Shown in pieces: positions 1-25,183 of a stretch of DNA of 31,113 nt (positions are counted from its first letter, which is position 1; every line of letters begins with the position of its first letter). The notes under the pieces were generated by a model. It was given only the letters and a program-made list of their open reading frames with translations. It was not told the origin of the DNA and ran no database searches. The stretch is from the IMG/VR virus record IMGVR_UViG_2870490042_000004, positions 1-31,113 of that record; one strand, 5' to 3'. The position numbers and the translations under genes are program-made. The stretch is from a virus (taxonomy: Duplodnaviria > Heunggongvirae > Uroviricota > Caudoviricetes).

Positions 1-219
1 TTACATCCACATAATTTGCTGCCCTGACGGCAACGGGTGCGGTCTTACGGCGTGGACTTCTCCCGGCTTCACGATGTATCGCTGTACCGACTCATAAGTG
101 ATGAACGTGGCGCTGCAATTCACGTTCTGACACTGGTGATAACGCTCTTTTGTCGTGTCAGTGATATAGCGGCTTGTACGCGCATGTGCGGCATGCTGGC
201 ATAAAGGACAATGAAACAT
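1..219 (-). CDS. ogr: Late-gene transcriptional activator Ogr (C4 zinc finger)
   Basis: 72-aa product from the internal ATG at 219 (MFHCPLCQH..., CPLC...CQNVNC zinc finger); SD-like GAGGTG upstream; the 93-aa ORF-track version adds an unsupported N-terminal extension; lies downstream of D as in P2. Confidence 0.9.
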   Translation of the reverse strand: MFHCPLCQHAAHARTSRYITDTTKERYHQCQNVNCSATFITYESVQRYIVKPGEVHAVRPHPLPSGQQIMWM

Positions 220-300
220 CGCGAGCACCTCTTCCGGTTTTGTTGATGGTGCCATTTTAGTTAATTTATCCTTATAAAACAAACAGATAAAATAAAAACA

Positions 301-1464
301 TCACTCATCATCTTCTGTTTCGTACTCCACATCAGAAAGCCTGACCTCAAGCTCTAAGGACGTCGTGAAGCCGCTATTATTCAGAAAATGTGTCACCTTA
401 GTGATTGTCCAGTCCTGCTCGTCTATGACGCGCTTAAAGCCTGACACTTTAACCGGTGTTTCCGTGTAAATATCAGCCCGACCGGTAGCCAGGCTGATGG
501 AGAACTCCGCAACGCCCCGTTGCAGTTTATCCCACTTCGCCTGAGCGGCGCGCATGGCCTGCGCTTTCGTGGCATATACCGTGGTCAGGGCAAAAACATT
601 GTCAGCCTCACCTGCCATGTATTCACCTTCGCGCGCTTCCGGTACTTTTGGCGCTTTCTTCTGCGTGACCGGTTTCGCTTTCGGGTGCTCCAGTGCGCGC
701 AGGTGTTTCTCTTTCTTTTTGCGTTTCAGTTTTACCTTCTGCTTTTGCGGCTTCGGGTCTTTGGTGTGTAACCACTTTGCCGTTACGCCGGTGTAGGCTC
801 CACGGTCAGCAATCGCAAAATGATGGCGGTCACCGTCGCTGCGGGTGATGGTGACCTGCGGGATTTTTTTACCGCTGGCCGTCACCCCCTGCCCCGCTTT
901 GAGAAACAGCAGTTTTCCCATTTTTACCGACACCTCACCGCCGTTGCGTTCTGCAAGACGGGTCAGAAATTTCGCATCAGACTCCTGCGACTGGTCGATG
1001 TGCGGGATTTTAATTCCGGCCAGTGACGGAGCGACACTGGCTTCCAGCCTGTTACGGGAGGCTATCGCCTCAACAATCGCACCGAGCGTGGTGTCATGCC
1101 ATGAGCCTTCACGGCGGGAATTGAGCGTCCCGCGAAAATCTGCACTCCGGGCGCGGATGGTGACCACATCCGGTGCGCCCCGGTGTTCAACCTCATCAAC
1201 GGTAAATTTCCCTTTGCATACCAGGGCAAAACCTTTCCAGCCGATATACACCGTCAGGACAGCGCCACGAATCGGTAGTCCAACCTGCCCGTCGGCATCG
1301 TTCAGTTCAATATCAAGCTGGTCAGCCTCAAAGCCCCGGTTATCCGTCAGGGTCATGCTCATCAGACGGTCGCTGATATTGCCGGTAATATCCCTGCTGT
1401 CGAGCATCAGCATGTAATCCGGCGTCAGCGTACTGCCTGCATCAAATGTCAGTGCATCCAGCAT
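301..1464 (-). CDS. D: Tail protein D (P2 gpD-like)
   Basis: 387 aa, same length as P2 gpD; sits between U and ogr; lysine-rich linker (KQKVKLKRKKKEK). Confidence 0.88.
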   Translation of the reverse strand: MLDALTFDAGSTLTPDYMLMLDSRDITGNISDRLMSMTLTDNRGFEADQLDIELNDADGQVGLPIRGAVLTVYIGWKGFALVCKGKFTVDEVEHRGAPDVVTIRARSADFRGTLNSRREGSWHDTTLGAIVEAIASRNRLEASVAPSLAGIKIPHIDQSQESDAKFLTRLAERNGGEVSVKMGKLLFLKAGQGVTASGKKIPQVTITRSDGDRHHFAIADRGAYTGVTAKWLHTKDPKPQKQKVKLKRKKKEKHLRALEHPKAKPVTQKKAPKVPEAREGEYMAGEADNVFALTTVYATKAQAMRAAQAKWDKLQRGVAEFSISLATGRADIYTETPVKVSGFKRVIDEQDWTITKVTHFLNNSGFTTSLELEVRLSDVEYETEDDE

Positions 1465-1943
1465 TATCCCGCCCCCGTCATACCCGTGAATTTAGTCGCC
1501 ATACTGCCAGCCTTACCGATGAGCGATTCCGCCTGTTTACCGATATCGCCATAAAGCGCGGCCAGTGATTCATCAACGCGGGTGAGCGACAGCGTAAAAT
1601 CAATTTTCCGGGGTGTGCCGTCTGCAAAGAAAATACTCCCTGTTTCACTCACCTTGCTGATGACATACATGCCGTAAATCATGCCGGTGCCATCCAGCAA
1701 CGGCCACGCCCGCCCCTCCTCTGCCATCAGCCTGAGCGTGGTCATCGTCAGCTTGCCGCCGGTCAGTTCGGGATAAAGCACACCGGCAAGCGTGATGTTT
1801 TCCTCACCCACACCGAGAAACTGAAAAGCGTCCCGTTTACCGATACGGGAATTTGACGGCCAGCGATAATCTGATTCACGCTGCATGGTCTGGTGTGGCA
1901 GCGTCTGGCGCATAAAAACAAACATACCTAACGCGAGCATCAT
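1464..1943 (-). CDS. U: Tail protein U (P2 gpU-like)
   Basis: 159 aa; immediately downstream of T and overlapping the D start by 1 nt; P2 synteny. Confidence 0.85.
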   Translation of the reverse strand: MMLALGMFVFMRQTLPHQTMQRESDYRWPSNSRIGKRDAFQFLGVGEENITLAGVLYPELTGGKLTMTTLRLMAEEGRAWPLLDGTGMIYGMYVISKVSETGSIFFADGTPRKIDFTLSLTRVDESLAALYGDIGKQAESLIGKAGSMATKFTGMTGAG

Positions 1944-1957
1944 TTTTCGTCACCTCC

Positions 1958-4405
1958 TTAACCGTCATGCATCATGCTGGCACGGGCGCGCGCACGTTTA
2001 TCCCGCTCGTATTTTTCGAGCGCATCCTGTAACTGGCGGTCGAGCTGTGTCCCCGGCGCAGTACCACCCGTCAGGCTGATGTGATATTCGTTTTTACTCT
2101 GGTCTACATAAGAGCGGCCAGCCGGTGCCGTGACCGGCTGATAAGCCTGATAACCTGCATAAGAGCTGGTCGCCGGAATATAACCACCGCTGCCATACGT
2201 GGCGGCTTGAGTTCTGGCGGCGGTCTGGTCAAGTGTGTCTGACTCTTTGTTGATAACACCGAGTTTTTCCAGTACCCAGTCAATACCACTGCGCAGTTTG
2301 TTGAACGCATTAAGCGGCAGCATCAGCGCGTCAGCCAGTGCCTGCCCGAACATGACGCCCGTGTCACGGCAACGGTTCAGGGTGTCCTGGGTGGCTTTGA
2401 CCGGGGCAATCAGGTTTTTAAACCACTGCCACGCGGCCTGTAACTTTTCACCCAGCCAGTCAAACACCGGTTTAAGTGGCGTGAACAGTTCCCCCACCGG
2501 CGCAAATGCCGCTTTCAGCCCTTCCACCACACCGCCAAAGAATGCGCTGACAGGCTCCCAGTATTTACGGATAAGCAACGCCCCGGCGACAATGGCGGCC
2601 ACCACGGCCACAACCGGCCAGCTAATCGCCCCGATGGCGGTTATAACAGCACTGCCAACCGTCGTGAAGATTGCCCCCATTGCGCCTGCTGCCGCGATGA
2701 TGGCATTGATGCCGGTGATAACCGGCCAGGCTACGAGGCCAATGGCACCGATGACACCAATCAGTGCCAGTGCACCACCGACAATGATGCCGATGGTTGA
2801 CGCCAGTGATTTGTTTTTCTGGATCCAGCCGTCGAGTTTTAACACATACTTTGTGGCCGTCTGCGTGAGATTACGCAGTGCGCCTTCCTGCTGGTCAAAC
2901 AGGTCAGTCCCCACCGCCTCATAAGCGGACTGAAACTCCTTAAAGTCACCGCCGAGGTTGTCCTGCATGATATTTACCAGCTCTGCGGTCTTCCCGTCTG
3001 AGGCTTTAAACGCAGCGGTCAGTTTGTCCAGCTTTCCGGTTGAGGCGGCAGTCATCAGCACAGCGGCGGCTGAGCTGGCCTCCTCCCCGAAAATGGTTTT
3101 CATGTATTCAGCCTGCTGGGCAGTACCGAGCCGGTTTTTCTCAAAACTGGCCTGCATTTCTTTCAGAATGGTAAATATTGGCCGGGTGTTTCCCTTGCTG
3201 TCTGAGGTTTTCACTCCAAGCTCTTTGAGTGCATCCCATGCTTTTCCCGTCGGTGCCTGCAGGCGGCTTAACACGGCACGGCTTCCCGTCCCCGCCATTG
3301 AGCCTGTGATTTTTGCATCATGCAGCGCCCCGACCATTGCGGCGGTTTCTTCAATGCTGACACCGGCATTTTTTGCCACAGGTGCGGCATAGGTCAGCGC
3401 ATCGCTCATGCCGTCAAAATCGGCGGCGGTTTTGTTCATCGTCATGGAGAGAACATCCCCGATATGAGCGACCTTATCGTTTGAAAGCTGAAAGGCGGAT
3501 TTCATCCCCATCAGCAGGGCGGCGTTTTCTTCCATCGTGCGGCGGTTCGCCAGCGCCATATTCAGCGTGACCGGCGTTGCCGCCTGAATGGCATCAACAT
3601 CCCCACCGGCTTTCGCAATGATAATCTGTGCACCGGCTGCATCATCTGCCGAGGCTGCGGTATTGTCGCCGAGCTGGCGCGCCTGCTTGCGGAGTGCGGT
3701 CATTTCGGCGGAGTCTTTTGCCACTCCCAGCACAGCCTGCAATTCTGAGTTTTTCTGCGCAAACTCATAACCGGGCATCAGCAGCTTAACTCCGGCCATC
3801 GTTCCCGCAGCAGCAATCCCCACACCGGCAGCGCCCACCGAGACCATATTTCCGGCCAGCTCCTTTCCGGCCTGATAACGCTGTTTGACTGCGTTAAGTT
3901 TTGCCTGTTGCGCACTGACACGCGCCAGCGCGTCGCGCTGACGGTTAAGCTGTGCGGTGGTTTCACTGATACGGTTTTTCAGTCCCTGCTCATCATGTGC
4001 AAGATTGCGGGTATTAATTCCCACAGCGGCCAGTTCCCGCTGCTGGCGTTTAACGGAATCCGTCAGGCGGTTATATTTCGCCTGTAAGTCCTCCGCCGCA
4101 CGCTTTGCGGATTCCAGCACTTTCGCCTGAGCACGGGTCGGACGTTCGGTGTTTTTAAACTGTGTGGCAAGGGCTTCTGCTTCCTGCCGAGCCTTTTCAA
4201 GTGCATGACCAGTCACGGCGAGCTGTGCACTGGTCTTGCGGAATCCCTCAATACGGGATGCGTGACCGTTCAGCTCGCGCAGTGATTTTTGTGTTTCCCG
4301 GATATCCCCCGACAGCGACTTGCTCGCTGTGCGGATGGATTTAAACGGGCGGGATGCCTGGTCAACAGCCCTGAGCAATACCTGTAATTTTACATTGTTA
4401 CTCAT
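1958..4405 (-). CDS. T: Tail tape-measure protein (P2 gpT-like)
   Basis: 815 aa; coiled-coil-rich N-terminal half, Gly/Ala-rich hydrophobic central stretch (IGIIVGGALALIGVIGAIGLVAWPVITG...); lies between E/E' and U. Confidence 0.9.
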   Translation of the reverse strand: MSNNVKLQVLLRAVDQASRPFKSIRTASKSLSGDIRETQKSLRELNGHASRIEGFRKTSAQLAVTGHALEKARQEAEALATQFKNTERPTRAQAKVLESAKRAAEDLQAKYNRLTDSVKRQQRELAAVGINTRNLAHDEQGLKNRISETTAQLNRQRDALARVSAQQAKLNAVKQRYQAGKELAGNMVSVGAAGVGIAAAGTMAGVKLLMPGYEFAQKNSELQAVLGVAKDSAEMTALRKQARQLGDNTAASADDAAGAQIIIAKAGGDVDAIQAATPVTLNMALANRRTMEENAALLMGMKSAFQLSNDKVAHIGDVLSMTMNKTAADFDGMSDALTYAAPVAKNAGVSIEETAAMVGALHDAKITGSMAGTGSRAVLSRLQAPTGKAWDALKELGVKTSDSKGNTRPIFTILKEMQASFEKNRLGTAQQAEYMKTIFGEEASSAAAVLMTAASTGKLDKLTAAFKASDGKTAELVNIMQDNLGGDFKEFQSAYEAVGTDLFDQQEGALRNLTQTATKYVLKLDGWIQKNKSLASTIGIIVGGALALIGVIGAIGLVAWPVITGINAIIAAAGAMGAIFTTVGSAVITAIGAISWPVVAVVAAIVAGALLIRKYWEPVSAFFGGVVEGLKAAFAPVGELFTPLKPVFDWLGEKLQAAWQWFKNLIAPVKATQDTLNRCRDTGVMFGQALADALMLPLNAFNKLRSGIDWVLEKLGVINKESDTLDQTAARTQAATYGSGGYIPATSSYAGYQAYQPVTAPAGRSYVDQSKNEYHISLTGGTAPGTQLDRQLQDALEKYERDKRARARASMMHDG

Positions 4406-4825
4406 TCGTGTTTCCGCTTCGCCGGAGCGCCTTTTCGCGCCATGTGATGAGTTCGGTCAGGCTCATGGGATACAGTTCTGATGGCGGCCAGTGAAATATC
4501 ACTGCCACATCCGCCATCAGGTCATCGACCGAGAGATTTTTCGGAAACGTCACTGCACCGAGTTCGGCGACAAAAAACCGACCACCTTACCGGCCAGCGC
4601 CACAAGGTCAGGCAGTTCCAGCGCGGCGACTTCCTGCTCGGTCAGCATCGGTGCCGTCATGCGCGGCAGCACTTTAATCAGTGCATCGACTTCGGAGTTC
4701 GCGACTGCAGCCAGACTGACACCGCGCAGCGTCCCGGCATTGGGTTTCATCAGCGTGACCTGTTCGATAACCTGCTCACCACGTTTGACCGGATTGTCCA
4801 GGGTAATGACGTTTTCTTTGTTCAT
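4398..4825 (-). CDS. Tail assembly chaperone E+E' (programmed -1 frameshift product)
   Basis: Slippery heptamer T-TTT-TTG on the minus strand at 4571-4577 within the last codons of E (..GFL..). Hand translation of the -1 frame continues ~57 codons to a TAA at 4398-4400 that overlaps the T start codon (ATGAGTAA). Same architecture as P2 E/E' and lambda G/GT. Confidence 0.65.
4550..4825 (-). CDS. E: Tail assembly chaperone E (P2 gpE-like)
   Basis: 91 aa (P2 gpE length); located between FII and T; ends 20 nt after the slippery site. Confidence 0.85.
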   Translation of the reverse strand: MNKENVITLDNPVKRGEQVIEQVTLMKPNAGTLRGVSLAAVANSEVDALIKVLPRMTAPMLTEQEVAALELPDLVALAGKVVGFLSPNSVQ

Positions 4826-4881
4826 GGTTTTCTCACTTCTGAATCGGGGTTAACCGGTCAGCCAGACTGACCGGATGAAAA

Positions 4882-5400
4882 TCACAGGCCGATATTGCGG
4901 CGGTGTTGCTCCAGCCGGTCGACGCCGTTCACCTTCTCAATCATGTTGATGGTGTCAATTTCGACCAGCTCCTTACCGTCCATCGTCAGCCGGAAATAGG
5001 TGCAGACCACGGAGATTTTCGACTCAGTGTCTTCTCCCTGTTTACCCTCGCCAGTGTCGATTTCTTTCTGACGTCCACGCATGACCACTTCGACGGCCAC
5101 CGTTTCGCCGGTATCGTCGCGCTGGTAAGAGCCTGCAAAACGAATCGGCACGGCATCCACACCGGTTGCGGCGTAAAGCTCCCAGATAACCGAATCCGGG
5201 AAACCACCGAGCGACCACTCCATTGACAGCGCATCGTCATCAAGGCCGAGGTCTACCGGTGCGCTGCCGTTCATCCCCGCACCGCGATAGTTTTCGAGCT
5301 TACGGGTCAGTTTTGGCAGCGTGACGGACTTTGCAACGCCCTGATAGCTGTAGCCGTTCAGAAAGACGTTCATTAACTTGAGTTTGCGCGGCATTGCCAT
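4882..5400 (-). CDS. FII: Tail tube protein (P2 gpFII-like)
   Basis: 172 aa; directly downstream of the sheath gene; P2 synteny and size. Confidence 0.9.
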   Translation of the reverse strand: MAMPRKLKLMNVFLNGYSYQGVAKSVTLPKLTRKLENYRGAGMNGSAPVDLGLDDDALSMEWSLGGFPDSVIWELYAATGVDAVPIRFAGSYQRDDTGETVAVEVVMRGRQKEIDTGEGKQGEDTESKISVVCTYFRLTMDGKELVEIDTINMIEKVNGVDRLEQHRRNIGL

Positions 5401-5412
5401 CGGTCAGACTCC

Positions 5413-6603
5413 TTAATTGCTGTTAACCGAGGTGACCAGATTTGCCAGGTATTTATCGGTAATACGCTGGCGCAGGGTCAGGTTTTCAAGAGGAGGCACC
5501 GGGGTATAGTCATAGTCGATATACAGTTTTCCGGCCTTGAGGGTTTCCGCATCGTTGGATTCTTCGCTGAACCAGCAGGTCGCATCCACGATATAGCCGT
5601 TTGTTTTCAGCTCACGGAATTTGGCATTGATGCCGTCAACGATGTCGCGAATCAGCGTTGCAGTGATGGGCTTGTCCACCGCCCACATGTGCGCCTCAGC
5701 CATCGTGTCGGCCAGCACCTGCGCGGTGCGGGTGTAGTTTTCAAAGAGGAACAGCGGGTCATCGGAGCAGGTACGGTTACCCCAGAAGCGGAAACCGTCG
5801 CGGCGAATCAGCGTAGTGACGCCTGACTCGTTAAGCAGGTCAGCATCGGTGCCGGACTCCTGCAAATCCCAGAAGACGGATGCGCTGATGCCGGTAACAC
5901 CGTTCACCCCGACATTGGACAGCGTTTTATGCCAGCCCTGCTCCTGGTCGATTTTAGCGCGCAGACCCAGCGCACGGGCGGTGGCATACGCGGTGGCGGT
6001 GGTACTGGTGACCGTATCCCATGCGAGGAAATCCGGCCAGATGACCATCAGCTCACGCTGGCTGAAATTCTGGCGGTAGGCTTTCACCTCGGAAATGGTT
6101 TTACAGCCCCATGCGCTGATATACCCGAAAGCGCGCAGCTTCTGACAGACTGATGCCAGTGCAACAGCCACCTCTTTGGTGTCCAGTCCCGGCACGCCGA
6201 GAATACGCGGTTTAACACCGATTACCGACTCTGCCGCCAGCAGGGCTTTCAGTCCGGTGTACTGACCGTTTTCGTCGGTGGTGCCGATGATATTGGAAAC
6301 GGTCTGCGCGAGTTTCGTTTCCTCGTCGTCACCGGTGCCGTCTTCCACACGCACGACAACGGTGACCGGTTTTGACTGGTCGGCGATGGCCTGTAACGAC
6401 GCCGCCAGCGTGCCTTTTTTACCGGCCTTTGCAATTGCGCTCTGCACATTGGTAATCAGCACCGGTTTATTGAGGGGGAAGGTTTCCGCATCCGCATCGC
6501 TGGCCGTGCAGACCATGCCGACAATGGCAGTGGATACGGTGGAAATGACGCGGGTGCCGTCGTTAATCTCCAGCACCTGCACGCCGTGATGATAGTCACT
6601 CAT
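5413..6603 (-). CDS. FI: Contractile tail sheath protein (P2 gpFI-like)
   Basis: 396 aa; sheath-tube gene pair; P2 synteny and size. Confidence 0.9.
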   Translation of the reverse strand: MSDYHHGVQVLEINDGTRVISTVSTAIVGMVCTASDADAETFPLNKPVLITNVQSAIAKAGKKGTLAASLQAIADQSKPVTVVVRVEDGTGDDEETKLAQTVSNIIGTTDENGQYTGLKALLAAESVIGVKPRILGVPGLDTKEVAVALASVCQKLRAFGYISAWGCKTISEVKAYRQNFSQRELMVIWPDFLAWDTVTSTTATAYATARALGLRAKIDQEQGWHKTLSNVGVNGVTGISASVFWDLQESGTDADLLNESGVTTLIRRDGFRFWGNRTCSDDPLFLFENYTRTAQVLADTMAEAHMWAVDKPITATLIRDIVDGINAKFRELKTNGYIVDATCWFSEESNDAETLKAGKLYIDYDYTPVPPLENLTLRQRITDKYLANLVTSVNSN

Positions 6604-6662
6604 CCGTTTAACTCCGTGGTTAATGGGTGAGTGATATTTTCAGTTGTGCCGGAGATGTCAGG

Positions 6663-7256
6663 CTATTTGTCCCGGTTGGCTAAGGGATGACACAATTTAT
6701 TCTTTGTCGTTGATACGGGGAATTTTTTATAGAGCGTGGACAGGCCAATATCAAAAATCAGCGCCACACGTTGACGAGATTCCCCCGCAGCCAGCAACCG
6801 TCCGACCTGCTCCCACTCACTCGCGGTGAGTTTCGGTCGTCTGCCACCAATACGACCTTTGGCTCTGGCTGCTTCCAGTCCGGCGCGTGTCCGCTCGACA
6901 ATGAGTTCTCGCTCCATTTCAGCCAGGGCACCCATCACATGAAAGAAAAAACGCCCCATCGGCGTGCTGGTATCAATAGCATCTGTCAGGCTGCGAAAAT
7001 TAACGCCGCGTTCGCGCAGTTCCTCAACCAGAATGACCAGATGCCGCATACTACGCCCCAGCCGGTCCAGCTTCCAGACCACCAGTGTATCCCCCTCCGA
7101 TAATGTCCTGAGCAGTTTTTTCAGTCCCGGTCGGTCGGACTTCGTGCCGCTGATTTTATCCTCAAAAATCAGCTCACATCCTGCGCACTCCAGCGCGTTA
7201 CGCTGCAATTCCGTATTCTGGTCATTTGTTGACACGCGGACATAGCCAATAAGCAT
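6663..7256 (-). CDS. Site-specific DNA invertase, serine recombinase of the Gin/Cin/Hin/Pin family
   Basis: 197 aa; N-terminus MLIGYVRVSTNDQ (catalytic Ser), GDTLVVWKLDRLGRS, MGRFFFHVMGALAEMERE, C-terminal HTH (ALIFDIGLSTLYKK); near-collinear with Mu Gin as I remember it. Confidence 0.95.
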   Translation of the reverse strand: MLIGYVRVSTNDQNTELQRNALECAGCELIFEDKISGTKSDRPGLKKLLRTLSEGDTLVVWKLDRLGRSMRHLVILVEELRERGVNFRSLTDAIDTSTPMGRFFFHVMGALAEMERELIVERTRAGLEAARAKGRIGGRRPKLTASEWEQVGRLLAAGESRQRVALIFDIGLSTLYKKFPVSTTKNKLCHPLANRDK

Positions 7257-7312
7257 GATGGATCCCCTGAATAAAAACCGGGGATGATGCCAGTTAGCCG
7301 TAATCTCTGCAT

Positions 7313-7338
7313 TTTCTTAAACGTTGGTTTGGGAGAAG
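7313..7338. repeat. Invertase crossover site (gix/hix-like 26-bp site, left boundary)
   Basis: TTTTCTTAAACG-TT-GGTTTGGGAGAA; two imperfect 12-bp half-sites around a central TT; its right half is the inverted copy of the left half of the site at 9221-9246. Confidence 0.7.
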
Positions 7339-7781
7339 GTGTTCCAGCTATTGGCGTTCCGTTCTTCTGGCCGTCCGCCGCAATGCCAGATACCGTAATC
7401 GAAAGCTGGTCCAGCATGGTGTTTTTGAAGTTCAACGGCGCGAAATTCTCTGCCACTGATTACCCTGTGCTGGCGAAAGTGTTTCCTTCGCTGGTATTGC
7501 CTGAAGCCCGCGGTGATTTCATTCGTATCTGGGATGATGGGCGAGGGGCGGACAGTGGACGAGCATTATTAAGCTGGCAGGCAGCAACATCTTTATCGCA
7601 ATTTGGCGGTAATTATCCAGAGGGCTCCGGCCATTCGATTGCTAATCACGATGGAATATCAGCACACGAGCCGGGTTTCTCTCGATACCATTACACCAGT
7701 AATTCAGTGGGTGATGGTGTGAATTTTATTGCCGTCAGACCACGTAACATCGCATTTAACTTTCTGGTGAGGGCTAAATAA
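7326..7781 (+). CDS. Alternative tail-fibre C-terminal exon (Sv'-like), start-less in the current orientation
   Basis: Reading frame is open through the crossover site and encodes ..VGLGE.., the same residues as H 276-280. It is followed by its own tail-fibre assembly gene with stop/start overlap TAATG. The ATG at 7284 in the ORF track is probably incidental. Confidence 0.6.
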   Translation, partial: GLGEGVPAIGVPFFWPSAAMPDTVIESWSSMVFLKFNGAKFSATDYPVLAKVFPSLVLPEARGDFIRIWDDGRGADSGRALLSWQAATSLSQFGGNYPEGSGHSIANHDGISAHEPGFSRYHYTSNSVGDGVNFIAVRPRNIAFNFLVRAK

Positions 7782-8374
7782 TGAAACCTGTTTTTGATGA
7801 AAATGGACTGGCTACAGTGCCGGGTGATATGCGTTGTTTTTATTATGATGAAGTAACGTATGAATATACGGGCTGGTCTGATGAATATATTAATACTGGT
7901 GTAAGTATGCCCGCCTGTTCCACTGGTATTGACCCGGGCGAAAACATTCCTGGAAAAGTGGCAGTATTTACGGGTAAGGGATGGATCCATGAAGAAGACC
8001 ATCGCAATGAGACTGTTTACTCAACAGAAAATGGTGCAGCTGTTACAGTGGATTATATCGGTGCCATCAAAGACGGTTATGTCACGCTTTCACCGTTAAC
8101 GCCATACGATAAATGGGATGGTGAGAAATGGGTGACGGATACCGAGGCACAGCATAGCGCCGCAGTAGACGCGGCAGAAGCACAGCGCCAGTCGCTGATT
8201 GATGCTGCAATGGCTTCCATTAGTCTGATTCAGCTGAAATTACAGGCCGGGCGGAAACTGACGCAGGCAGAAACAACCCGGCTTAACGCTGTGCTGGATT
8301 ACATTGACGCGGTGACGGCAACAGATACCAGCACCGCGCCGGATATCAATTGGCCTGCTCCCCCGGAGGCGTAG
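7781..8374 (+). CDS. Tail fibre assembly chaperone (Tfa', alternate)
   Basis: 197 aa; SD GAGGG upstream; C-terminal ..DINWPAPPEA motif typical of Tfa/gpG-like chaperones; paired with the Sv' exon. Confidence 0.8.
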   Translation: MKPVFDENGLATVPGDMRCFYYDEVTYEYTGWSDEYINTGVSMPACSTGIDPGENIPGKVAVFTGKGWIHEEDHRNETVYSTENGAAVTVDYIGAIKDGYVTLSPLTPYDKWDGEKWVTDTEAQHSAAVDAAEAQRQSLIDAAMASISLIQLKLQAGRKLTQAETTRLNAVLDYIDAVTATDTSTAPDINWPAPPEA

Positions 8375-8792
8375 GCCAGACGGGATTTGATGTATCAACG
8401 CGCATCAGCAAGACCCGGTATTTTTTCCATTCAGATAACGCGGCGGTTTCTTCTGCCGTCGCGATTTCCGCATCAAAAGCATCCTGTCTCCAGACTATTT
8501 CCTTATCAGCCATAGAACGCAATACCGTTCTTTTCTGTTCAGCCTGAATAATCTGTTGTTCAGCGGAGAGTGGCGGGATATCAATCCACGCAGGATTACC
8601 ATTTTTATCAGCCCCCAGCGTTTTGCCTTCTGGCGCTACGCCTGTGTAAATTGCCATTGTTTCATCATCAACATCAGCGCCATTTTCAGGCCATGAACCG
8701 GCGCTGATATATACCTCTTTTAGTGCTTCCGGATAGAAAGAGCCTTTATAAAATTTATTCATTCTTAATACCCCAGCGCGATAAAACAACAA
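8346..8792 (-). CDS. G: Tail fibre assembly chaperone (P2 gpG-like, currently expressed orientation)
   Basis: 148 aa; immediately downstream of H (overlap 8765-8792); C-terminal ..NPVWPTPPGEQAN Tfa-type motif. Confidence 0.8.
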   Translation of the reverse strand: MLFYRAGVLRMNKFYKGSFYPEALKEVYISAGSWPENGADVDDETMAIYTGVAPEGKTLGADKNGNPAWIDIPPLSAEQQIIQAEQKRTVLRSMADKEIVWRQDAFDAEIATAEETAALSEWKKYRVLLMRVDTSNPVWPTPPGEQAN

Positions 8793-10060
8793 TCTTCGGT
8801 GCCCTCTCCGGATGGCGACCAGTTCTGAATACTGATGTGCGTTCTGCTGGCAATACGCACATTCATCGCGGCATTGTAGCCAGATGTTCCACGGTTTCCG
8901 GTCGCAAACAAGCCTGCATAGGGAAAAGCAAATGGTAAGGCATATCCAGCATCAGCTCCCTTTTGTGTTGCCACCGTTCCCCACTGCAACATAAGTTTCA
9001 CCGGGTTTCCTGTCGTCGCAATGCATGGAATGTAGATGTAGCCATTACCTGACATCATTGACCTGAAGCTGTCTAAATCCAGTAACTTCGAGGGATTATC
9101 TGCTCCAACATCTCGTGTTGCAGCGGTCCCTAACTGGAGCGCATTTCGGAAGGCTGATACATCAGAAATATCAGATCCATTAGCCGATTTCTGCATAGCT
9201 CCGGAGGCTTTATTTATCGTTTCTCCCAAACCAAGGTATGCGAGAAGACCGGCAACATCCTTTCCACTCAAATGAGTCAGCGTCTCATCCAGTGGCTGCT
9301 TACCTGACAGCGCATTGTTAATGGTGGTGCTGAATTTCGGGTCATTGTTAATGGCCGCGGCAATTTCTTTCAGTGTGTCCAGCGTGTCAGGCGCACCGTT
9401 AATCAGAGCGGTAATAGCGGCCTGTACAAACGCAGTGGTCGCAATCCGCGTGGTGTTATTTCCTGCGGCAGGCGTCGGCGCTTTTGGTTCTCCGGTAAAT
9501 GTCGGATTATGTTTCTGCGCATACTGGGTATGAGGATCCTGTGCGGCAATGTGGTTTCTCATCTGTTCATCCACATACAGCCTTAATTCCAGGACTTCAT
9601 CATCCACGTATTTACGGGTCGCCAGTACCACCGACGGGTCGATTTTCAGCGTAATAGCTTCGGTATTCGTGACAACCAGAATCATGCGGATAGTCTGGGT
9701 ACGACCGCTGCCTTCCTGCAACTGCGGTTTGTACGTTTCCGGGCAGTTCGCCACCGCAATGAGTACGCCTTCATCATCATAAAGCCCAATCTCACGGATC
9801 CAGAATCCGCCCTCGTTCTCAGGGATGATTTGCTCCGCAATAATCTGGCTCTGGTTGTTCGGGTCAACACTCAGAAGATTCAGCGGCGCGATGCGTTTCT
9901 GGTTAATCAGTTTTGTCTGTGCCGGGTCTGGTGTCGGCAAGACACCATTCGCATCACCAACGGCCATTTGCGTCAGATTCAGCTTACTGCCGAGCATCGT
10001 CGCGTTAGCCAGCCGTGCTGCGCCCTGATTAGTCAGAATGGCGTAGTATTTCACTGTCAT
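8765..10060 (-). CDS. H: Tail fibre protein (P2 gpH-like): constant N-terminus plus currently joined variable C-terminus
   Basis: 431 aa; position between I and the chaperone gene. The crossover site at 9221-9246 lies inside the gene at LAYLGLGE (aa 273-280), splitting a constant part (9247-10060) from a variable part (8765-9220). Confidence 0.85.
   Translation of the reverse strand: MTVKYYAILTNQGAARLANATMLGSKLNLTQMAVGDANGVLPTPDPAQTKLINQKRIAPLNLLSVDPNNQSQIIAEQIIPENEGGFWIREIGLYDDEGVLIAVANCPETYKPQLQEGSGRTQTIRMILVVTNTEAITLKIDPSVVLATRKYVDDEVLELRLYVDEQMRNHIAAQDPHTQYAQKHNPTFTGEPKAPTPAAGNNTTRIATTAFVQAAITALINGAPDTLDTLKEIAAAINNDPKFSTTINNALSGKQPLDETLTHLSGKDVAGLLAYLGLGETINKASGAMQKSANGSDISDVSAFRNALQLGTAATRDVGADNPSKLLDLDSFRSMMSGNGYIYIPCIATTGNPVKLMLQWGTVATQKGADAGYALPFAFPYAGLFATGNRGTSGYNAAMNVRIASRTHISIQNWSPSGEGTEDCCFIALGY
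9221..9246. repeat. Invertase crossover site (right boundary, inside H)
   Basis: TTCTCCCAAACC-AA-GGTATGCGAGAA; left half-site plus central dinucleotide are the exact inverted repeat of 7325-7338. Confidence 0.7.
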
Positions 10061-14065: not shown

Positions 14066-14478
14066 GGTTCCCGCCCCTCAAAACGCTGACGACAGGCCGT
14101 GCGTATCAGCCGGAAGAACACCGACGCCACAAGATAAATCAGCGCGGTAAAAATCCACCCGGCAGCGACCAGCGAGATAAACGTCGCCACCATCACTACC
14201 AGAGCCGCCGCCCGTCTGCGCCACGGCACCGGCTGCAAAAACAGCGACGTGACAATCTTCACGGCCAGCGATTCCGGTGGCAGCTCCCGCCCGTAGCGTT
14301 CCAGCACATACTCAGTGGCATACACGCCGACACCACCGGCAACCACACAGATAACCGTCGCCAGAATCGCCCAGGCGGCGACAAAACTGACGGCCACGCT
14401 CTGCGGGTAAATCAGGGACAGTGCCAGCATCAGCGCCAGCGACACGTTCAGCATCAGAGAAAGGGATAATTTCTTCAT
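14053..14478 (-). CDS. lysA: Lysis timing membrane protein (LysA-like)
   Basis: 141 aa (P2 LysA length); multiple predicted TM helices; lies between K and lysB. Confidence 0.8.
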   Translation of the reverse strand: MKKLSLSLMLNVSLALMLALSLIYPQSVAVSFVAAWAILATVICVVAGGVGVYATEYVLERYGRELPPESLAVKIVTSLFLQPVPWRRRAAALVVMVATFISLVAAGWIFTALIYLVASVFFRLIRTACRQRFEGREPCQS

Positions 14479-14492
14479 GGTGTTTACTCCGT

Positions 14493-14990
14493 TTAAGCCG
14501 GTACGCCGCCAGCGGTACGCCAGACGGTGACCAGTTTTTCCAGTGAATGCTCACGCTGACCGTAACCGGCACCCGGCAGGGACGCCCAGATATTGCGACA
14601 GCGTGAAATGGCGCGCTCAATGCGTCCCGCCCGGATGTCATCCAGTGCACCGCGTTCGCGGATCAACTGAATGGCGAGTCTGTCCTGTGACAACGGACTG
14701 AAATCCGGCAGGGCAAGCTGTTTGCGGTAGTGCGGCCAGAACAGGTAAAGCTGCTGATAGCGACCGGAGGCCGTGGATTTTTCACCGCGACGGTTAAACA
14801 CCTTCGCCGGTCGGCCATGCGCGAACGGGTGGTCACTGTAGTCAGTGAAAATTTCCGGCTTCCCGTCCAGTCCGGTGACTATCACGTCATAGCCCCGGTT
14901 TTTCGTCAGCGGATGATTCGCCGTCCCTTCGGACACGGCCAGCATGTCGAGAAAGGCCGCGATATTCTGATGCGTGTTAATTACCGGCAT
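14493..14990 (-). CDS. K: Endolysin (P2 gpK-like phage lysozyme)
   Basis: 165 aa (P2 gpK length); immediately downstream of the holin with a 1-nt overlap. Confidence 0.85.
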   Translation of the reverse strand: MPVINTHQNIAAFLDMLAVSEGTANHPLTKNRGYDVIVTGLDGKPEIFTDYSDHPFAHGRPAKVFNRRGEKSTASGRYQQLYLFWPHYRKQLALPDFSPLSQDRLAIQLIRERGALDDIRAGRIERAISRCRNIWASLPGAGYGQREHSLEKLVTVWRTAGGVPA

Positions 14991-15271
14991 TACGGTTTCC
15001 CCCTGCCCTTAAAACGGCGCTGAATGGCAATCTCAATCACCTGATAACCGGCGATACCCAGCATGGAGCCGATACCGCACACCGCAGGCAGTGACAGGTC
15101 AGGAAACTGCACCAGAACAACACCGGCAACCATCGAGACAAAACCACCGAGCAACATGCGCCCGATAAACAGACGCGGGGTGATGGGTTCACCACCGGCA
15201 AGCACCTTGCCGACAACAATCAGCACCCCAATCATGAAAAGCGACAGGACGCTTTTTTCTTCTGCTGTCAT
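14990..15271 (-). CDS. Y: Holin (P2 gpY-like)
   Basis: 93 aa (P2 gpY length); hydrophobic helices plus charged C-terminus (RRFKGRGKP). Confidence 0.85.
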   Translation of the reverse strand: MTAEEKSVLSLFMIGVLIVVGKVLAGGEPITPRLFIGRMLLGGFVSMVAGVVLVQFPDLSLPAVCGIGSMLGIAGYQVIEIAIQRRFKGRGKP

Positions 15272-15274
15272 GCG

Positions 15275-15478
15275 TTACTCCCACAGATTGACAGTTTCAG
15301 CCACGGGCGCGGTCTGAACGTCGGGCAGTTCGACGGCGGTGCCGTGTGGCAGCACCGCACCCAGTTCAGCCAGTCCCGAATTTGCGGCGAGCACGGTCTC
15401 AACCACGCCTTCAGTGCGCCCGTAATACCGGACACAAATGGCGTCGAGCGTGTCGCCCTGTAGCGCAAAGGTCTTCAT
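15275..15478 (-). CDS. X: Tail protein X (LysM-like, P2 gpX)
   Basis: 67-aa product from the internal ATG at 15478 (MKTFALQGDTLDAICVRYYG...), which overlaps the L stop as ATGA; the 90-aa ORF-track start is unsupported. Confidence 0.75.
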   Translation of the reverse strand: MKTFALQGDTLDAICVRYYGRTEGVVETVLAANSGLAELGAVLPHGTAVELPDVQTAPVAETVNLWE

Positions 15479-15987
15479 CAGATTTGACTCACGATGCAGC
15501 GCGGCTTGTCCTGGATACGCGCCACCGCCCAGCGCATATCCCGCCACAGTTCATCAATGGTGCTGTCAATGCTGTCAGCCTTCTTGTCACCTTTCGCACT
15601 GGCATCCACACCGCGATAACGTTCATAAAGCGACGCGGTCGCCATCGCACACACGGCGCGCTCGTAGTAAAAAACTTTGATGCTTTCACCGTCGATGTCG
15701 TCCGCCGGGACGTCCGCCAGACGCGTAAAACCGGCGGCAATTTTCTGTTCGCGGTACTCGTACAGCTCCGCATTCGTCTCCGCCATGCCTGACTTGATGG
15801 CCTCACGCAGACGGGCGGGGGCGACGGTCTGCTCAAGGCGCATACGTTCCCGGACGCGCTTCGGGTCGATATCGGGAAAAAAGAACGTGTTTTTAATCAC
15901 CGGCTCGTCGCCTGCCGGTTGCGGGATGACCACCGTACCCTCACCGGACACGGGAGCCTCCTTTCGCGGAATAATCAGCGTCATCAT
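15478..15987 (-). CDS. L: Head completion protein (P2 gpL-like)
   Basis: 169-aa product from the ATG at 15987 (MMTLIIPRK...), preceded by an SD (AGAGGTAG); the 189-aa ORF-track start is probably too long. Confidence 0.8.
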   Translation of the reverse strand: MMTLIIPRKEAPVSGEGTVVIPQPAGDEPVIKNTFFFPDIDPKRVRERMRLEQTVAPARLREAIKSGMAETNAELYEYREQKIAAGFTRLADVPADDIDGESIKVFYYERAVCAMATASLYERYRGVDASAKGDKKADSIDSTIDELWRDMRWAVARIQDKPRCIVSQI

Positions 15988-22134: not shown

Positions 22135-23949
22135 TTATTTCCATTCTTCAGAATAGACTGCATCTGACGATCTAGGACCAGGTATAGCCTGATGAATAGA
22201 AATTCTCACTGGTATATTAAAAGCTGCACCAAACGCAATTGCATCCCCCCTAGGAAGACCTGAAACTTGTCTAATCATCAATTCATTCCCACTCTCCATC
22301 GCATATCGGAGAGTTTGCAGGTCTCGTTCATTAGTTAGCCGCAATGCAAACCAATTTGAACACATAGCTAATACAGTAGTAGAAAGTTCTGATGGACGCT
22401 GAGTACTAACAATCAATGAACATTTAAATTTGCGTCCTTCTTTTGCAAGACGTTCATAAGCCTTAATTTGAGAATCAATCTCAGAGTAAGGATCTCTCAA
22501 ATAATGATGTGCTTCTTCAAGAAGTAAAACAGTTGGGAAAGACTTATCTTGCCCTCTTAAAAAAAGAACTTCAGCAAACATTTCTAATAAAGCACTCAAC
22601 AGCATTGGTGCATGGTCTTGCGAAAGATTTTTAAGATTAATAATATGCACATTCCAATCATTTTCCTCTCCTTTCTCTCGGCCAAAAAAATAGTCAACTT
22701 CATTTTTCATTGCCGATTCCCAATGTTTACCATTATTAGTTAAAGTATGCCCTCCCTTCATATCTACAACATTTTTGAATCTGATATCCTCTGATAGCTG
22801 CTGAATAATTTTCACTAAAGGAAGCACATTGCCATAACTAAAAGCATCTCTTTTACTTCCACCAGAACGAAAGTCCGCAGCAACACAACCGAACTCGGCT
22901 ACTAAACTAGCAATACTTTTGAATGGAGGCCATCGATCTGTTTTAGCAAGTGTCCTATTTCTTAACCCATCCAACCATAATCCAAGCGAGAATTGCCCTT
23001 CCTCTCGGCAATCATCATATATCCGAAACTGAGTTCCTTTACTATCTTCCAGATAAAAATTAGAACCTTCAAAATGTGTTCTATTTATAGCATTAAGAGC
23101 ATTCCTCAACGCTGGCAACTGTGTTTTATCGCTAGGACGTAGTAATTTTATCAACCCTGCAAAACCAAGCGCTTGATACGGTATTTGCTTATAATAGACA
23201 TGTTTTTCAGAAAATACCTGACCTCGCACAAATGGAGGTCGCGGTGGTATACCTTCAGGACTCATCCCCAAAATAGTATGTTTAACATTCGCTATTCCTT
23301 CAAATGCTTTAGAATACTCGCCATTAATATCAAAAATCACAATTCTCGAATTAGGATACTTCTCGGAAATACGCCTGGTCAACAGTGCATTAAAATTTGA
23401 TTTTCCATACCCAGTACTCCCTAACACAGCCATATGACGAGTCAACAACTTATCAATACTCGCTAAGATTTTTACTGATTTAGTTCTTGAATCCAAACCT
23501 AACTCTATGGCTTTTTCCAATTCATCCTCATCGATACTATAAATCGTATTTAAAAAATTAGATGTTAACGGAACCGCTGAGGCCCCCAATGCTGGTAGTC
23601 TCCAATCCTCTGAAACAAAAATACACCCGTCGTTGTTTCTCTTAATGAAACCAATGGCATAAGCTATAATCTGCCTTAAAGGCATATCCGTTATATCCGA
23701 CGTACCGATATTTGCTTTATGAGCTTTATCAGCCTCGACAAACGCCATATCTGTAACTCGGGCAACGACCAAAATATTTCCAGCATCAAAACCAATCAAA
23801 TCACCAGGCTGAGTAACAGAACTCACACCATCCCTATGAGAGGCCAATCTTCCTTGTAGACCTTCATGAAGGTTAATCCTTATTTTCTCACCTTCCAAAC
23901 CAACAACATAACCAATTGCAGAAAGCTCTGAGAGTTTAAAATGAGACAT
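22135..23949 (-). CDS. HerA/FtsK-like ATPase, second gene of a SIR2-HerA-type defence operon
   Basis: Walker A GSTGYGKS, Walker B LLLEEAHHY, HerA-type motifs IVIFDINGEY and FKCSLIVSTQRPSEL. Start placed at the ATG at 23949 (MSHFKL..., SD AAAGGGGA), which overlaps the upstream gene's stop by 14 nt. The ORF track's TTG at 23997 is a less likely start. AT-rich codon usage. Confidence 0.8.
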   Translation of the reverse strand: MSHFKLSELSAIGYVVGLEGEKIRINLHEGLQGRLASHRDGVSSVTQPGDLIGFDAGNILVVARVTDMAFVEADKAHKANIGTSDITDMPLRQIIAYAIGFIKRNNDGCIFVSEDWRLPALGASAVPLTSNFLNTIYSIDEDELEKAIELGLDSRTKSVKILASIDKLLTRHMAVLGSTGYGKSNFNALLTRRISEKYPNSRIVIFDINGEYSKAFEGIANVKHTILGMSPEGIPPRPPFVRGQVFSEKHVYYKQIPYQALGFAGLIKLLRPSDKTQLPALRNALNAINRTHFEGSNFYLEDSKGTQFRIYDDCREEGQFSLGLWLDGLRNRTLAKTDRWPPFKSIASLVAEFGCVAADFRSGGSKRDAFSYGNVLPLVKIIQQLSEDIRFKNVVDMKGGHTLTNNGKHWESAMKNEVDYFFGREKGEENDWNVHIINLKNLSQDHAPMLLSALLEMFAEVLFLRGQDKSFPTVLLLEEAHHYLRDPYSEIDSQIKAYERLAKEGRKFKCSLIVSTQRPSELSTTVLAMCSNWFALRLTNERDLQTLRYAMESGNELMIRQVSGLPRGDAIAFGAAFNIPVRISIHQAIPGPRSSDAVYSEEWK

Positions 23950-25183
23950 TCCCATCCCCTTTAGATAATTTAGAAATAGCCTCAACCAGATCATCAACAG
24001 TATTTTCTCTTGGAAAGAGAACAGGATAGGGAAGATGTTTTACAAAACTGTCAAAGTAGGCATATTCACCTCCACCAACAATAGTCACCTGATTAAATGT
24101 CAAATTTTTTAAATTAATTATTGCCTTTTCACTTTCTGAAGCCAAGTTTTTTTCAACTTTTGATTGAGCACTATCTAACTCTGGATAATAAATAACGATA
24201 TGAAATGATGGATTTAACAACGCTCCTAAAATTATTCGATTTATATGGTAATCACCGAATCCAAAACCATTTACAAACAATGCTGTTTGTGGCTTTGACA
24301 AAAACTCTCCAAATCGTCTAAACATCTCGCCATACACAAAACCAATAGTATGGCTATATTTATTTGCACCGGGGTAAATTAAGTGTTGACCATGGAAATA
24401 ACCATCTTCATTTATGATATTTTGTATATAGTTATCATAGGCTTGAGAAGCACTTATTTCACTAACTGTTAAACAATCATCCTGATACCAAGTAAGAGAA
24501 CCGTGCAATTTATAAAGATAGGCATGATAATGTCCAAAACGTGCTTCTCCCTTTGCATTTACATTTCTAAAAGCCAAATCGAAATTTTGAGGGTAAAATT
24601 GTCGCGTGTGTAATCCAGCAAATCCATTAAACAACTGAATCCCTAAATCCTCTGCTGACCATTCTAAAGCCAAATCATAATTTGTTGTAAAAAGTGCAGG
24701 TGCCGATTGACCTGGTTGACGATTTGATATTAGTTTGGATATTAGCTCTTTATGATCTCGGAATTGAGATTTCTTACCCTGGTTTTTATTTCTAAAATCA
24801 CTACCAGTCAATAATGCAGCTTTTGTCACTTCTTTATATAAACTGCTTAATATCAAACCAACTTCCTTAACCTCAACTTCATTATGTCGAGTTTTTGCGA
24901 CTGATAAAAATTTAGTAGCTTCATCAATCAATAATTCCACATTGACTATATCATTATCAGAATCAGCCTGAGTGACCAAAAAATATTTTTCAATTAGCAA
25001 TGCCAGAAGCTTCGGATACTCTTGCTTAAACGATTGCCACACCTGCTTCATTGTGTTCCCACCACAACCAACAGATGCGCCAGCTCCCAAGAGAACCCCA
25101 ACATTATCCAACTGGCATAAAGAGTAAACATGAGAACGAAAATCATCCTCACAAATCTTTTTACCACCTTGATAAATAATCAT
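23936..25183 (-). CDS. SIR2-like (sirtuin-fold, SIR2_2-type) NADase-family protein, first gene of the SIR2-HerA-type operon
   Basis: 415 aa; Gly-rich NAD-binding loop VGVLLGAGASVGCGG; TTNYD and KLHGS motifs (SIR2 catalytic Asn/His context); SD AAAGGGG 5 nt upstream of the ATG; AT-rich. Confidence 0.8.
   Translation of the reverse strand: MIIYQGGKKICEDDFRSHVYSLCQLDNVGVLLGAGASVGCGGNTMKQVWQSFKQEYPKLLALLIEKYFLVTQADSDNDIVNVELLIDEATKFLSVAKTRHNEVEVKEVGLILSSLYKEVTKAALLTGSDFRNKNQGKKSQFRDHKELISKLISNRQPGQSAPALFTTNYDLALEWSAEDLGIQLFNGFAGLHTRQFYPQNFDLAFRNVNAKGEARFGHYHAYLYKLHGSLTWYQDDCLTVSEISASQAYDNYIQNIINEDGYFHGQHLIYPGANKYSHTIGFVYGEMFRRFGEFLSKPQTALFVNGFGFGDYHINRIILGALLNPSFHIVIYYPELDSAQSKVEKNLASESEKAIINLKNLTFNQVTIVGGGEYAYFDSFVKHLPYPVLFPRENTVDDLVEAISKLSKGDGNVSF

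Follow-up and report, generated by a model that had tools for sequence, protein, structure and literature searches.

We describe a tail-fibre region that is, with high confidence, a functional Gin/Cin-type inversion switch in a complete P2-like (Peduovirus) Escherichia coli prophage, contained in the stretch of 31,113 nucleotides analysed here (the window). Both orientations of the identical prophage occur in nature: E. coli strain 32-4 (GCF_010365345.1) has this prophage too, at 100% identity across some 28 kb, and differs from the window only by an IS2 insertion and by the opposite orientation of segment 7324-9234. The switch is real, it was correctly interpreted by the initial annotation of this DNA, and it is already known in P2-like prophages. 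Features of the region are listed in Table 1.

Table 1 Features of the invertible tail-fibre region and adjoining invertase gene. Positions are those of the window.
Feature	Position	Strand	Evidence or remark
Serine DNA invertase, 197 aa, Gin/Cin/Pin/Hin family	6663..7256	-	Pfam, PHROG and PDB matches
Putative recombinational (Fis-dependent) enhancer	7167..7238	-	Homology to enhancer annotated inside P1 cin
Terminator-like hairpin, then T run	7276..7295	-	Pattern match only; between left site and invertase start
Left recombination site, cix-like, 12-2-12	7312..7337	.	Crossover dinucleotide TT at 7324-7325
Cassette B, silent alternative fibre C-terminus, collar-like tip, 151 aa	7326..7781	+	PHROG 3100/523
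Chaperone B, tail-fibre assembly, 197 aa, cognate to cassette B	7781..8374	+	Pfam Caudo_TAP E 2.3e-28; PHROG 105 E 2.7e-83
Chaperone A, tail-fibre assembly, 138 aa	8346..8762	-	Pfam Caudo_TAP E 1.4e-31; PHROG 188
Cassette A, variable H C-terminus, gp53-like tip	8765..9232	-	Pfam Gp53-like_C, residues 356-431
Right recombination site, cix-like	9221..9246	.	Crossover AA at 9233-9234
Constant N-terminal part of tail fibre H, P2 gpH-type	9235..10060	-	Pfam Phage_tail_fib

Both orientations in natural isolates

The 32-4 prophage shows no mismatches over window positions 1-4374, 4370-7337 and 9221-29734, and 7324-9237 aligns in reverse; its homology breakpoint at the left site falls within 7324-7337, inside the predicted 14-bp core. 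Since the flipped copy has not acquired a single substitution over about 28 kb, the flip is very recent. Isolates AF51 and AF43, whose prophage is 98% related to that of the window, likewise differ by inversion of the 1.9-kb segment at the same sites, between flanks that are 100% identical (8.7 kb and 8.9 kb). In both comparisons, 32-4 with the window and AF51 with AF43, the crossover lies at the site cores.

Among 5426 complete E. coli genomes, 3421 match parts of the region; the junctions between H and tip are in the window state in 74 and in the flipped state in 44. The full-length pairing of cassettes A and B is restricted to three of the 5426, namely 32-4 and 1002W03 (both flipped) and ES4 (on another backbone). 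No complete E. coli genome yielded a 100% identical copy in the orientation of the window; the sole full-length match in the same orientation is that of ES4, 94% identical and on a different backbone. The sister genomes point to flipping in this particular lysogen as well.

Inversion in silico brings cassette B into frame with the constant part of H, which gives an intact H' of 427 aa (vs 431 aa for H); H and H' share exactly residues 1-280. The H' protein encoded by 32-4 is identical to this predicted fusion, which bears out the earlier proposal that inversion exchanges the C-terminus carried by a constant part of 280 aa.

Recombination sites

The left site reads TTTTCTTAAACG TT GGTTTGGGAGAA and the right site TTCTCCCAAACC AA GGTATGCGAGAA; together they form an inverted repeat of 26 nt with arms that are 81% complementary. 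The architecture is that of two inverted 26-bp sites with imperfect 12-bp half-sites (TTCTCCCAAACC twice, TTCTCGCATACC and TTTTCTTAAACG) around a common 2-bp AA/TT core, the central dinucleotides being identical after allowing for orientation. The right site is located inside the H coding sequence, where it encodes ...AYLGLGE. The outer half-site of the left site, TTTTCTTAAACG, is degenerate, and was counted against the switch model.

The 14-bp core TTCTCCCAAACCAA is present in exactly two copies in the 31-kb window, one per strand, even with two mismatches allowed. When scored by the palindromic consensus for invertase sites, TTCTCNNAAACCNNGGTTTNNGAGAA, the two sites reach 19/20 and 18/20; the runner-up position in the window scores 13/20 and the best of 200 shuffles 16. 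Core search and consensus scoring thus agree with the initial annotation, which had recognized inverted gix/hix-like sites with an identical 14-bp core and compatible TT/AA centres. Its position for the right site (9221-9246) holds, and its position for the left site (7313-7338) needs to be moved 1 nt leftward, to 7312-7337. A Min-like multi-site shufflon was rejected, as the window holds no further cix-like sites, the next score being 13/20.

Fibre cassettes and chaperones

H is a single ORF of 431 aa (10060..8765, - strand) that joins the constant part to cassette A, the tip expressed in the window orientation, and is transcribed with the late V-W-J-I-H operon, genes I, J, W and V lying upstream on the - strand. 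The Pfam Phage_tail_fib N-terminal match of the constant part covers residues 1-150 (E 1.5e-62). Cassette B is joined to this part only upon inversion; it matches the tail fibre C-terminal regions of PHROG 3100/523 (E 2.5e-50 and 1.6e-44) and, under the curated cut-off, weakly Pfam Collar. The two tips thus belong to different families, gp53-like_C for A and collar-like PHROG 3100/523 for B. Chaperone A is cognate to the currently expressed tip and has a match to Mu U in its C-terminal domain (PDB 5yvq_B, E 3e-9); chaperones A and B overlap convergently by 29 nt. No named NCBIfam family was matched by the fibre or chaperone proteins. In PDB sequence searches, neither tip A nor chaperone B had a match, and tip B had a single marginal one, to a short tail fibre.

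The arrangement is therefore one in which the constant fibre N-terminus and the promoter are outside the segment, opposed pairs of cassette and chaperone are inside, and both fusions are in frame. ORFs, Caudo_TAP Pfam matches and PHROG matches are all in line with the two convergent cassettes described initially, each a fibre C-terminus with its own chaperone.

Invertase gene and its surroundings

The invertase gene is directed away from the invertible segment and starts 55 bp beyond the left site. The product has the size expected of a small serine recombinase (~190 aa); its catalytic domain, with the Ser9/10 nucleophile, is N-terminal (Pfam Resolvase N-terminal domain PF00239, E 1.9e-52) and is followed by a C-terminal HTH (HTH_7, PF02796). 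It matches PHROG 125 'DNA invertase' (E 6e-101) and Gin (PDB 3uj3/4m6f, E about 1e-93), and the PDB search also matched the Hin HTH; NCBIfam gave sub-threshold matches to large serine recombinases only. The protein is 79.0% identical to Mu Gin, 78.5% to P1 Cin and 96.4% to the pro483 invertase, and MLIGYVRVSTNDQ with Ser9, DRLGRS and other conserved blocks are identical. A Gin-like invertase directly outside the segment had been proposed and is indeed encoded there; a substitution of the catalytic Ser, which would have spoken against the switch, is absent.

Invertases of this family act with the help of host Fis (and HU) on negatively supercoiled DNA, and their recombinational enhancer, in cis and with two sites for Fis, is found in the 5' part of the invertase gene. 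A putative enhancer corresponds to +19..+90 of the gene, the same gene position as in P1 cin, and is identical at 57/72 positions to the enhancer in the P1 record and at 55/72 to the equivalent stretch of Mu gin. It contains two G-N13-C 15-mers, at gene positions 22 and 71. As its identity equals that of the gene as a whole, enhancer function is inseparable from coding conservation, and homology suggests, rather than establishes, such a function. The terminator-like hairpin, at the place equivalent to the annotated P2 terminator after G, may block read-through from the late operon.

Proposed mechanism and alternative explanations

In the mechanism that we propose, the invertase (7256..6663) would bind both inverted 26-bp sites, cleave at the central AA/TT and swap strands, presumably assisted by host Fis on the enhancer in the 5' end of its gene, with inversion of the 1.9-kb segment 7324-9234 as the outcome. 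Promoter and constant part of H (280 N-terminal residues) would come from the late operon, and the cassette in line with them would be expressed with its own chaperone: gp53-like tip A and chaperone A in the window state, collar-like tip B and chaperone B in the inverted state. With either cassette expressed according to orientation, a lysogen population would release two virion types with different receptor specificities, a form of host-range bet-hedging that may be likened to that of Mu G and P1 C. Fis/enhancer dependence, like the rate of inversion and the receptors that the two tips actually use, enters this scheme as something we infer.

All parts could be present and the switch nevertheless inactive in this strain, for instance through a defective enhancer or an unexpressed invertase, so that the orientations found in databases reflect old events. 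In keeping with such a frozen relic, a simple sigma-70 scan gave no candidate promoter for the invertase (nor one near the left site for the silent cassette), and the enhancer is assigned by inference from homology. The invertase ORF is intact, however, with all catalytic motifs, and the recent date of the 32-4 flip, together with the same observation for AF51/AF43, makes a relic improbable. Still less probable is inversion driven in trans by another invertase resident in the host, such as e14 Pin or one encoded by a further P2-like or Mu-like prophage. Gin, Cin, Pin and Hin can cross-complement, and related modules are commonly present in additional copies, parts of the region matching a median of two places per E. 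coli genome that has a match at all; yet the adjacent invertase is intact and, like the sites, is conserved in pro483, 32-4, 1002W03, AF51 and AF43, and a trans-acting enzyme would alter only which enzyme acts and leave the mechanism unchanged. Assemblers report one consensus orientation and assembly can be confused by inverted repeats, and the orientation difference might accordingly be an assembly artefact, or result from RecA-mediated inversion between short inverted repeats instead of site-specific recombination. We reject this explanation, the least probable of all, because a common core of only 14 bp (26 bp with imperfections) would neither mislead the assembly of complete genomes, presumably built from long reads, nor sustain efficient recombination by RecA, and because the breakpoints coincide exactly with consensus invertase sites beside an invertase gene in two independent genome pairs.

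Beyond acting in the Gin/Cin-type switch, the cix-like sites may, although this is rather unlikely, double as exchange points for whole tip-chaperone cassettes between co-resident phages, the route of which may be intermolecular invertase-mediated or site-anchored recombination. Homology between the window and the 98%-related AF51 prophage breaks off at 7339, 2 nt beyond the left site, and is found again from 8091, a position within the C-terminal half of the chaperone, which is conserved; cassette B DNA is 83% identical to side tail fibre genes of the lambdoid phages mEp213 and mEp043. Both observations, and the presence of the A and B pair on the different backbone of ES4, fit such an exchange. 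The same pattern is also explained by ordinary homologous recombination in conserved flanks, which is the established view of tail-fibre mosaicism.

For annotation, an inversion switch means that the prophage makes two fibre isoforms, and that the short 'extra' ORF for a tail protein next to the invertase is the silent cassette and not an independent gene. It also leads one to expect two host-range states in a temperate phage of the P2 type, which is of relevance to phage typing, host-range prediction and the engineering of P2-type particles.

Comparison with known systems

The region resembles the Mu G segment and Gin in its invertase (79% identical), whose gene is outside the segment and directed away from it, with 68 bp between site centre and invertase start codon (67 bp in Mu), in its two convergent pairs of tip and chaperone with the constant fibre N-terminus outside, and in a chaperone C-terminal domain similar to Mu U. 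It differs in the site centre (AA/TT here, GA/TC in gix), segment length (1.9 kb, 3 kb in Mu), fibre backbone (P2 gpH-type, Mu S) and phage type, a P2-like myovirus as opposed to a transposable phage. With the P1 C segment and Cin (78.5% identical) it shares half-sites and the AA/TT centre of cix, the right site differing from cixR (TTCTCTTAAACC AA GGTATTGGATAA) at 4 of 26 positions, as well as the stretch homologous to the annotated cin enhancer at the matching gene position. In P1, however, the segment is 4.2 kb and cixL overlaps the 3' end of cin, which is therefore directed toward the segment, whereas here the site is upstream of the invertase, as in Mu. Salmonella Hin/hix, the e14 Pin/P segment and p15B Min have recombinases of the same family and the same 26-bp site architecture. 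Hin inverts a promoter, unlike the coding cassettes found here, and Min acts on six sites to give many isoforms, against only two sites in the whole window.

The host phage has the P2 gene order ogr, D, U, T, E, FII, FI ... H, I, J, W, V ... Q, A, cox, C, and from ogrK to the repressor the window matches the annotated 32-4 prophage collinearly at 100% identity, in a layout like that of P2 and pro483. The module is, as first noted, missing from P2 itself, where the order is H-G-terminator-fun(Z)-FI, with fun(Z) at that position and no such site. This absence does not make the switch new, as the layout recurs in phage pro483 and in many further P2-like prophages of E. coli, and flipping in P2-like prophages has been shown by experiment. 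Coexisting orientations in P2-like prophages of EPEC E2348/69 were detected by WGS and PCR (Goldberg et al. 2014, PMC4272514), and a DNA invertase with inverted neighbours has been noted as common at the P2 Z/fun hotspot (bioRxiv 10.1101/2024.10.15.618418). Mechanism, family and presence in P2-like prophages are all documented, and our analysis adds no new principle. Invertible tail-fibre segments are known, for example, from pro483 (NC_028943), the 'P2' prophage of O157:H43 T22 (KC618326) and EPEC E2348/69. The window shares with pro483-type systems the order FI sheath, invertase, silent tip, chaperone, chaperone, H, I, an identical right site and a left site with 1 base different, and is set apart from them only by its particular pair of tips.

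Recombination sites and invertase

The top inverted pair returned by the repeat finder consists of the 26-nt arms TTTTCTTAAACGTTGGTTTGGGAGAA (left site) and TTCTCCCAAACCAAGGTATGCGAGAA (right site), spaced 1883 nt apart. When all 26-mers of the window were scored against the palindromic consensus TTCTCNNAAACCNNGGTTTNNGAGAA (20 specified positions; background of 200 shuffles), the two sites reached 18 and 19 out of 20, while the runner-up in the window scored 13 and the shuffle maximum was 16; there are thus exactly two sites, well beyond chance. Even with two mismatches permitted, the 14-bp core TTCTCCCAAACCAA is present nowhere in the 31-kb window but in these two sites, one copy on each strand. 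The initial annotation had proposed two inverted 26-bp sites with a shared 14-bp core and compatible central dinucleotides (TT/AA); core and dinucleotides were found as described and the right site was placed exactly, the left site (7313-7338) 1 nt too far to the right.

Features of the invertible segment and other genes of the prophage (window coordinates; sites are written as 12-2-12).
Feature	Position	Strand	Remarks
Serine recombinase (invertase)	7256..6663	-	197 aa; PF00239 and resolvase HTH domain
Putative enhancer	7167-7238		homologous to P1 cin enhancer
Terminator-like hairpin	7295-7276	-	
Left site	7312-7337		TTTTCTTAAACG-TT-GGTTTGGGAGAA
Fibre C-terminal cassette (tip B)	left site to 7781	+	PHROG 3100/523 tail-fibre C-termini; Collar match weak, sub-threshold
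Second Caudo_TAP chaperone	7781..8374	+	Caudo_TAP match
Caudo_TAP chaperone (tip A side)	8762..8346	-	C-terminal domain matches Mu U, PDB 5yvq
Fibre gene H	10060..8765	-	431 aa; P2-type N-terminal domain PF12571, E 1.5e-62; gp53-like C-terminal tip
Right site	9221-9246		TTCTCCCAAACC-AA-GGTATGCGAGAA
SIR2-HerA anti-phage defence pair	22135-25183 (ORFs 23949..22135 and 25183..23936)	-	PADLOC: HerA E 1e-274, SIR2 E 8e-190

The invertase gene lies just outside the left site and is transcribed away from the segment, which bears out the earlier placement of a Gin-like invertase immediately outside it; the product matches crystal structures of Gin (3uj3 and 4m6f, ~1e-93), and its identity is 79.0% with Mu Gin, 78.5% with P1 Cin, and 96.4% with the pro483 invertase. 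Instead of the Ser substitution named beforehand as a mark of a catalytically dead enzyme, Ser9 is present and all conserved blocks are intact. In the P1 record the Cin enhancer spans +19..+90 of cin; its homologous counterpart in the window is identical at 57 of 72 positions, no better conserved than the remaining invertase gene, and is for that reason considered a putative enhancer. The hairpin might perhaps insulate the invertase from late read-through.

Fibre and chaperone genes

The plus-strand cassette and its chaperone converge on H and its chaperone on the minus strand; gene content, Caudo_TAP matches, and PHROG matches all agree with the proposed two convergent cassettes, each a fibre C-terminus with its own chaperone. 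The 3' ends of the chaperone genes overlap by 29 nt (8346-8374), an overlap also annotated in pro483, 32-4, ES4, AF51, and AF43, whereas U and U' of Mu lie 28 bp apart. An ATGATG 40 nt outside the left site (7284-7325) is in frame with whichever cassette adjoins the invertase, giving an ORF of 165 aa in the window and ~169 aa in the flipped state; pro483 likewise has an ATG outside the site in frame with the invertase-side cassette, and the GeneMark S' call in Mu also begins outside the G segment. No convincing RBS or promoter was found for this ORF, and it is therefore probably not expressed.

Relative to the 98%-identical sister prophage of AF51, homology is lost 2 nt past the left site (7339) and regained at 8091, where the chaperone gene encodes its conserved C-terminal half; a block comprising tip B and the N-terminal half of its chaperone has thus been exchanged. 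Cassette B shares 83% DNA identity with the side tail fibre and tfa genes of the lambdoid phages mEp213 and mEp043.

Both orientations in nature

In-silico inversion of 7324-9234 joins residues 1-280 of H in frame to the plus-strand cassette, giving an intact protein of 427 aa (junction ...AYLGLGE|GVPAIGVPFFWPS...). The flipped 1-kb junction was searched against 5426 complete E. coli genomes and matched strain 32-4 (NZ_CP048310.1) at full length with 100.0% identity. Window positions 1-4374, 4370-7337, and 9221-29734 align to 32-4 with 0 mismatches, and 7324-9237 aligns in reverse orientation with 1 mismatch, taken to lie in the 3 nt of alignment overrunning the core; one prophage therefore exists in both orientations, with breakpoints within the predicted 14-bp core. 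The same is seen independently in isolates AF51 and AF43, whose 98%-related prophage adjoins trhP: the flanks (8.7 kb and 8.9 kb) are 100% identical, and the same two sites bound an inverted segment of 1.9 kb. The predicted exchange of the C-terminus on the constant 280 aa of H is thereby borne out by the fusion and the natural flipped copies. At a coverage of at least 80%, the junction of constant H with tip A (the cassette fused to it in the window) was found in 74 complete genomes and that with tip B in 44.

The 32-4 copy carries an IS2 near the 5' end of its tape-measure gene (14305-15635 of that locus; 5-bp overlap or duplication; ~4370-4374 in window terms) and is probably defective; the tape-measure gene of the window (1958..4405) is intact. 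RefSeq/PGAP splits the flipped-state fibre gene of 32-4 and 1002W03 (20043-21326 of either locus) into two fragments marked as pseudogenes ("incomplete; partial in the middle of a contig"), although the ORF is actually intact at 427 aa; their silent cassette beside the invertase is treated as a separate gene, for a "gp53-like domain-containing protein", and that of ES4 is called a partial "integrase". Such labels are annotation artefacts of invertible fibre genes.

Mechanism and alternatives

Two consensus sites with matching crossover dinucleotides are adjoined by an intact Gin/Cin-type invertase; inversion gives an alternative fusion that stays in frame, and natural genomes carry an otherwise identical prophage in either orientation. 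By analogy with Gin, Cin, and Hin, invertase dimers on both sites would form an invertasome with a Fis-bound enhancer, cut the 2-bp core via Ser9, rotate 180 degrees, and religate; late transcription of the V-W-J-I-H operon would then express the tip and chaperone in line with constant H. The other pair would be silent for want of a promoter, and a simple scan picked up none.

The flipped sister copies show zero substitutions, which makes a frozen relic unlikely. Another resident invertase could perform the flipping in trans, but this would leave the mechanism unchanged. Assembly error or RecA recombination is an implausible source of the orientation difference, the core being just 14 bp and the breakpoints coinciding with the invertase sites in two independent genome pairs. 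The natural flipped variants support the initial interpretation of an invertible switch.

Comparison with known systems

The window spans an entire P2-like prophage, from ogr through the immunity and integrase end. It had been suggested that P2 itself lacks the switch, and this holds: its G-FI interval carries a terminator and the fun(Z) gene, and P2 has neither an invertase nor a cix-like site scoring above 12/20. The defence pair is flanked by the portal gene and replication gene A, the classical P2 old/tin cargo hotspot; at the same position 1002W03 carries other cargo, namely DUF262, a HEPN-like nuclease, and a cytosine methyltransferase.

The feature is an ordinary element of an already-known kind. 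Parts of the region are matched by 3421 of the 5426 genomes; pro483 is annotated with the same order (FI, invertase, silent tip, chaperone, chaperone, H, I), and the same kinds of genes are listed for the "P2" prophage of O157:H43 T22. In EPEC E2348/69, Goldberg et al. (2014, PMC4272514) detected coexisting orientations in a pair of P2-like prophages, of which one has a two-state switch and the other a three-repeat shufflon. The P2 Z/fun hotspot frequently carries a DNA invertase whose neighbouring genes are inverted (Egorov et al. 2024, bioRxiv 10.1101/2024.10.15.618418), and the gene families enriched at programmed inversions include tail fibre, tail fibre assembly, and "phage tail protein I" genes (Milman et al. 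2023, PMC9881135). Only the particular tip pairing is slightly unusual, and it reflects well-known tail-fibre cassette mosaicism: full-length matches are confined to three complete E. coli genomes, two of them in the flipped state (32-4 and 1002W03) and one in the window's state on another backbone (ES4).

The Mu record gives gixL as TTATCCAAAACC-TC-GGTTTACAGGAA and gixR as TTCCTGTAAACC-GA-GGTTTTGGATAA, the P1 record cixL as CAATCCTAAACC-TT-GGTTTAAGAGAA and cixR as TTCTCTTAAACC-AA-GGTATTGGATAA. Both kinds share the TTCTC..AAACC half-site with the window; cix also shares the AA/TT crossover dinucleotide, and cixR differs from the right site at 4 of 26 positions. Mu has the same layout, with a site upstream of an outward-reading invertase and the start codon 67 bp from the site centre, against 68 bp in the window.
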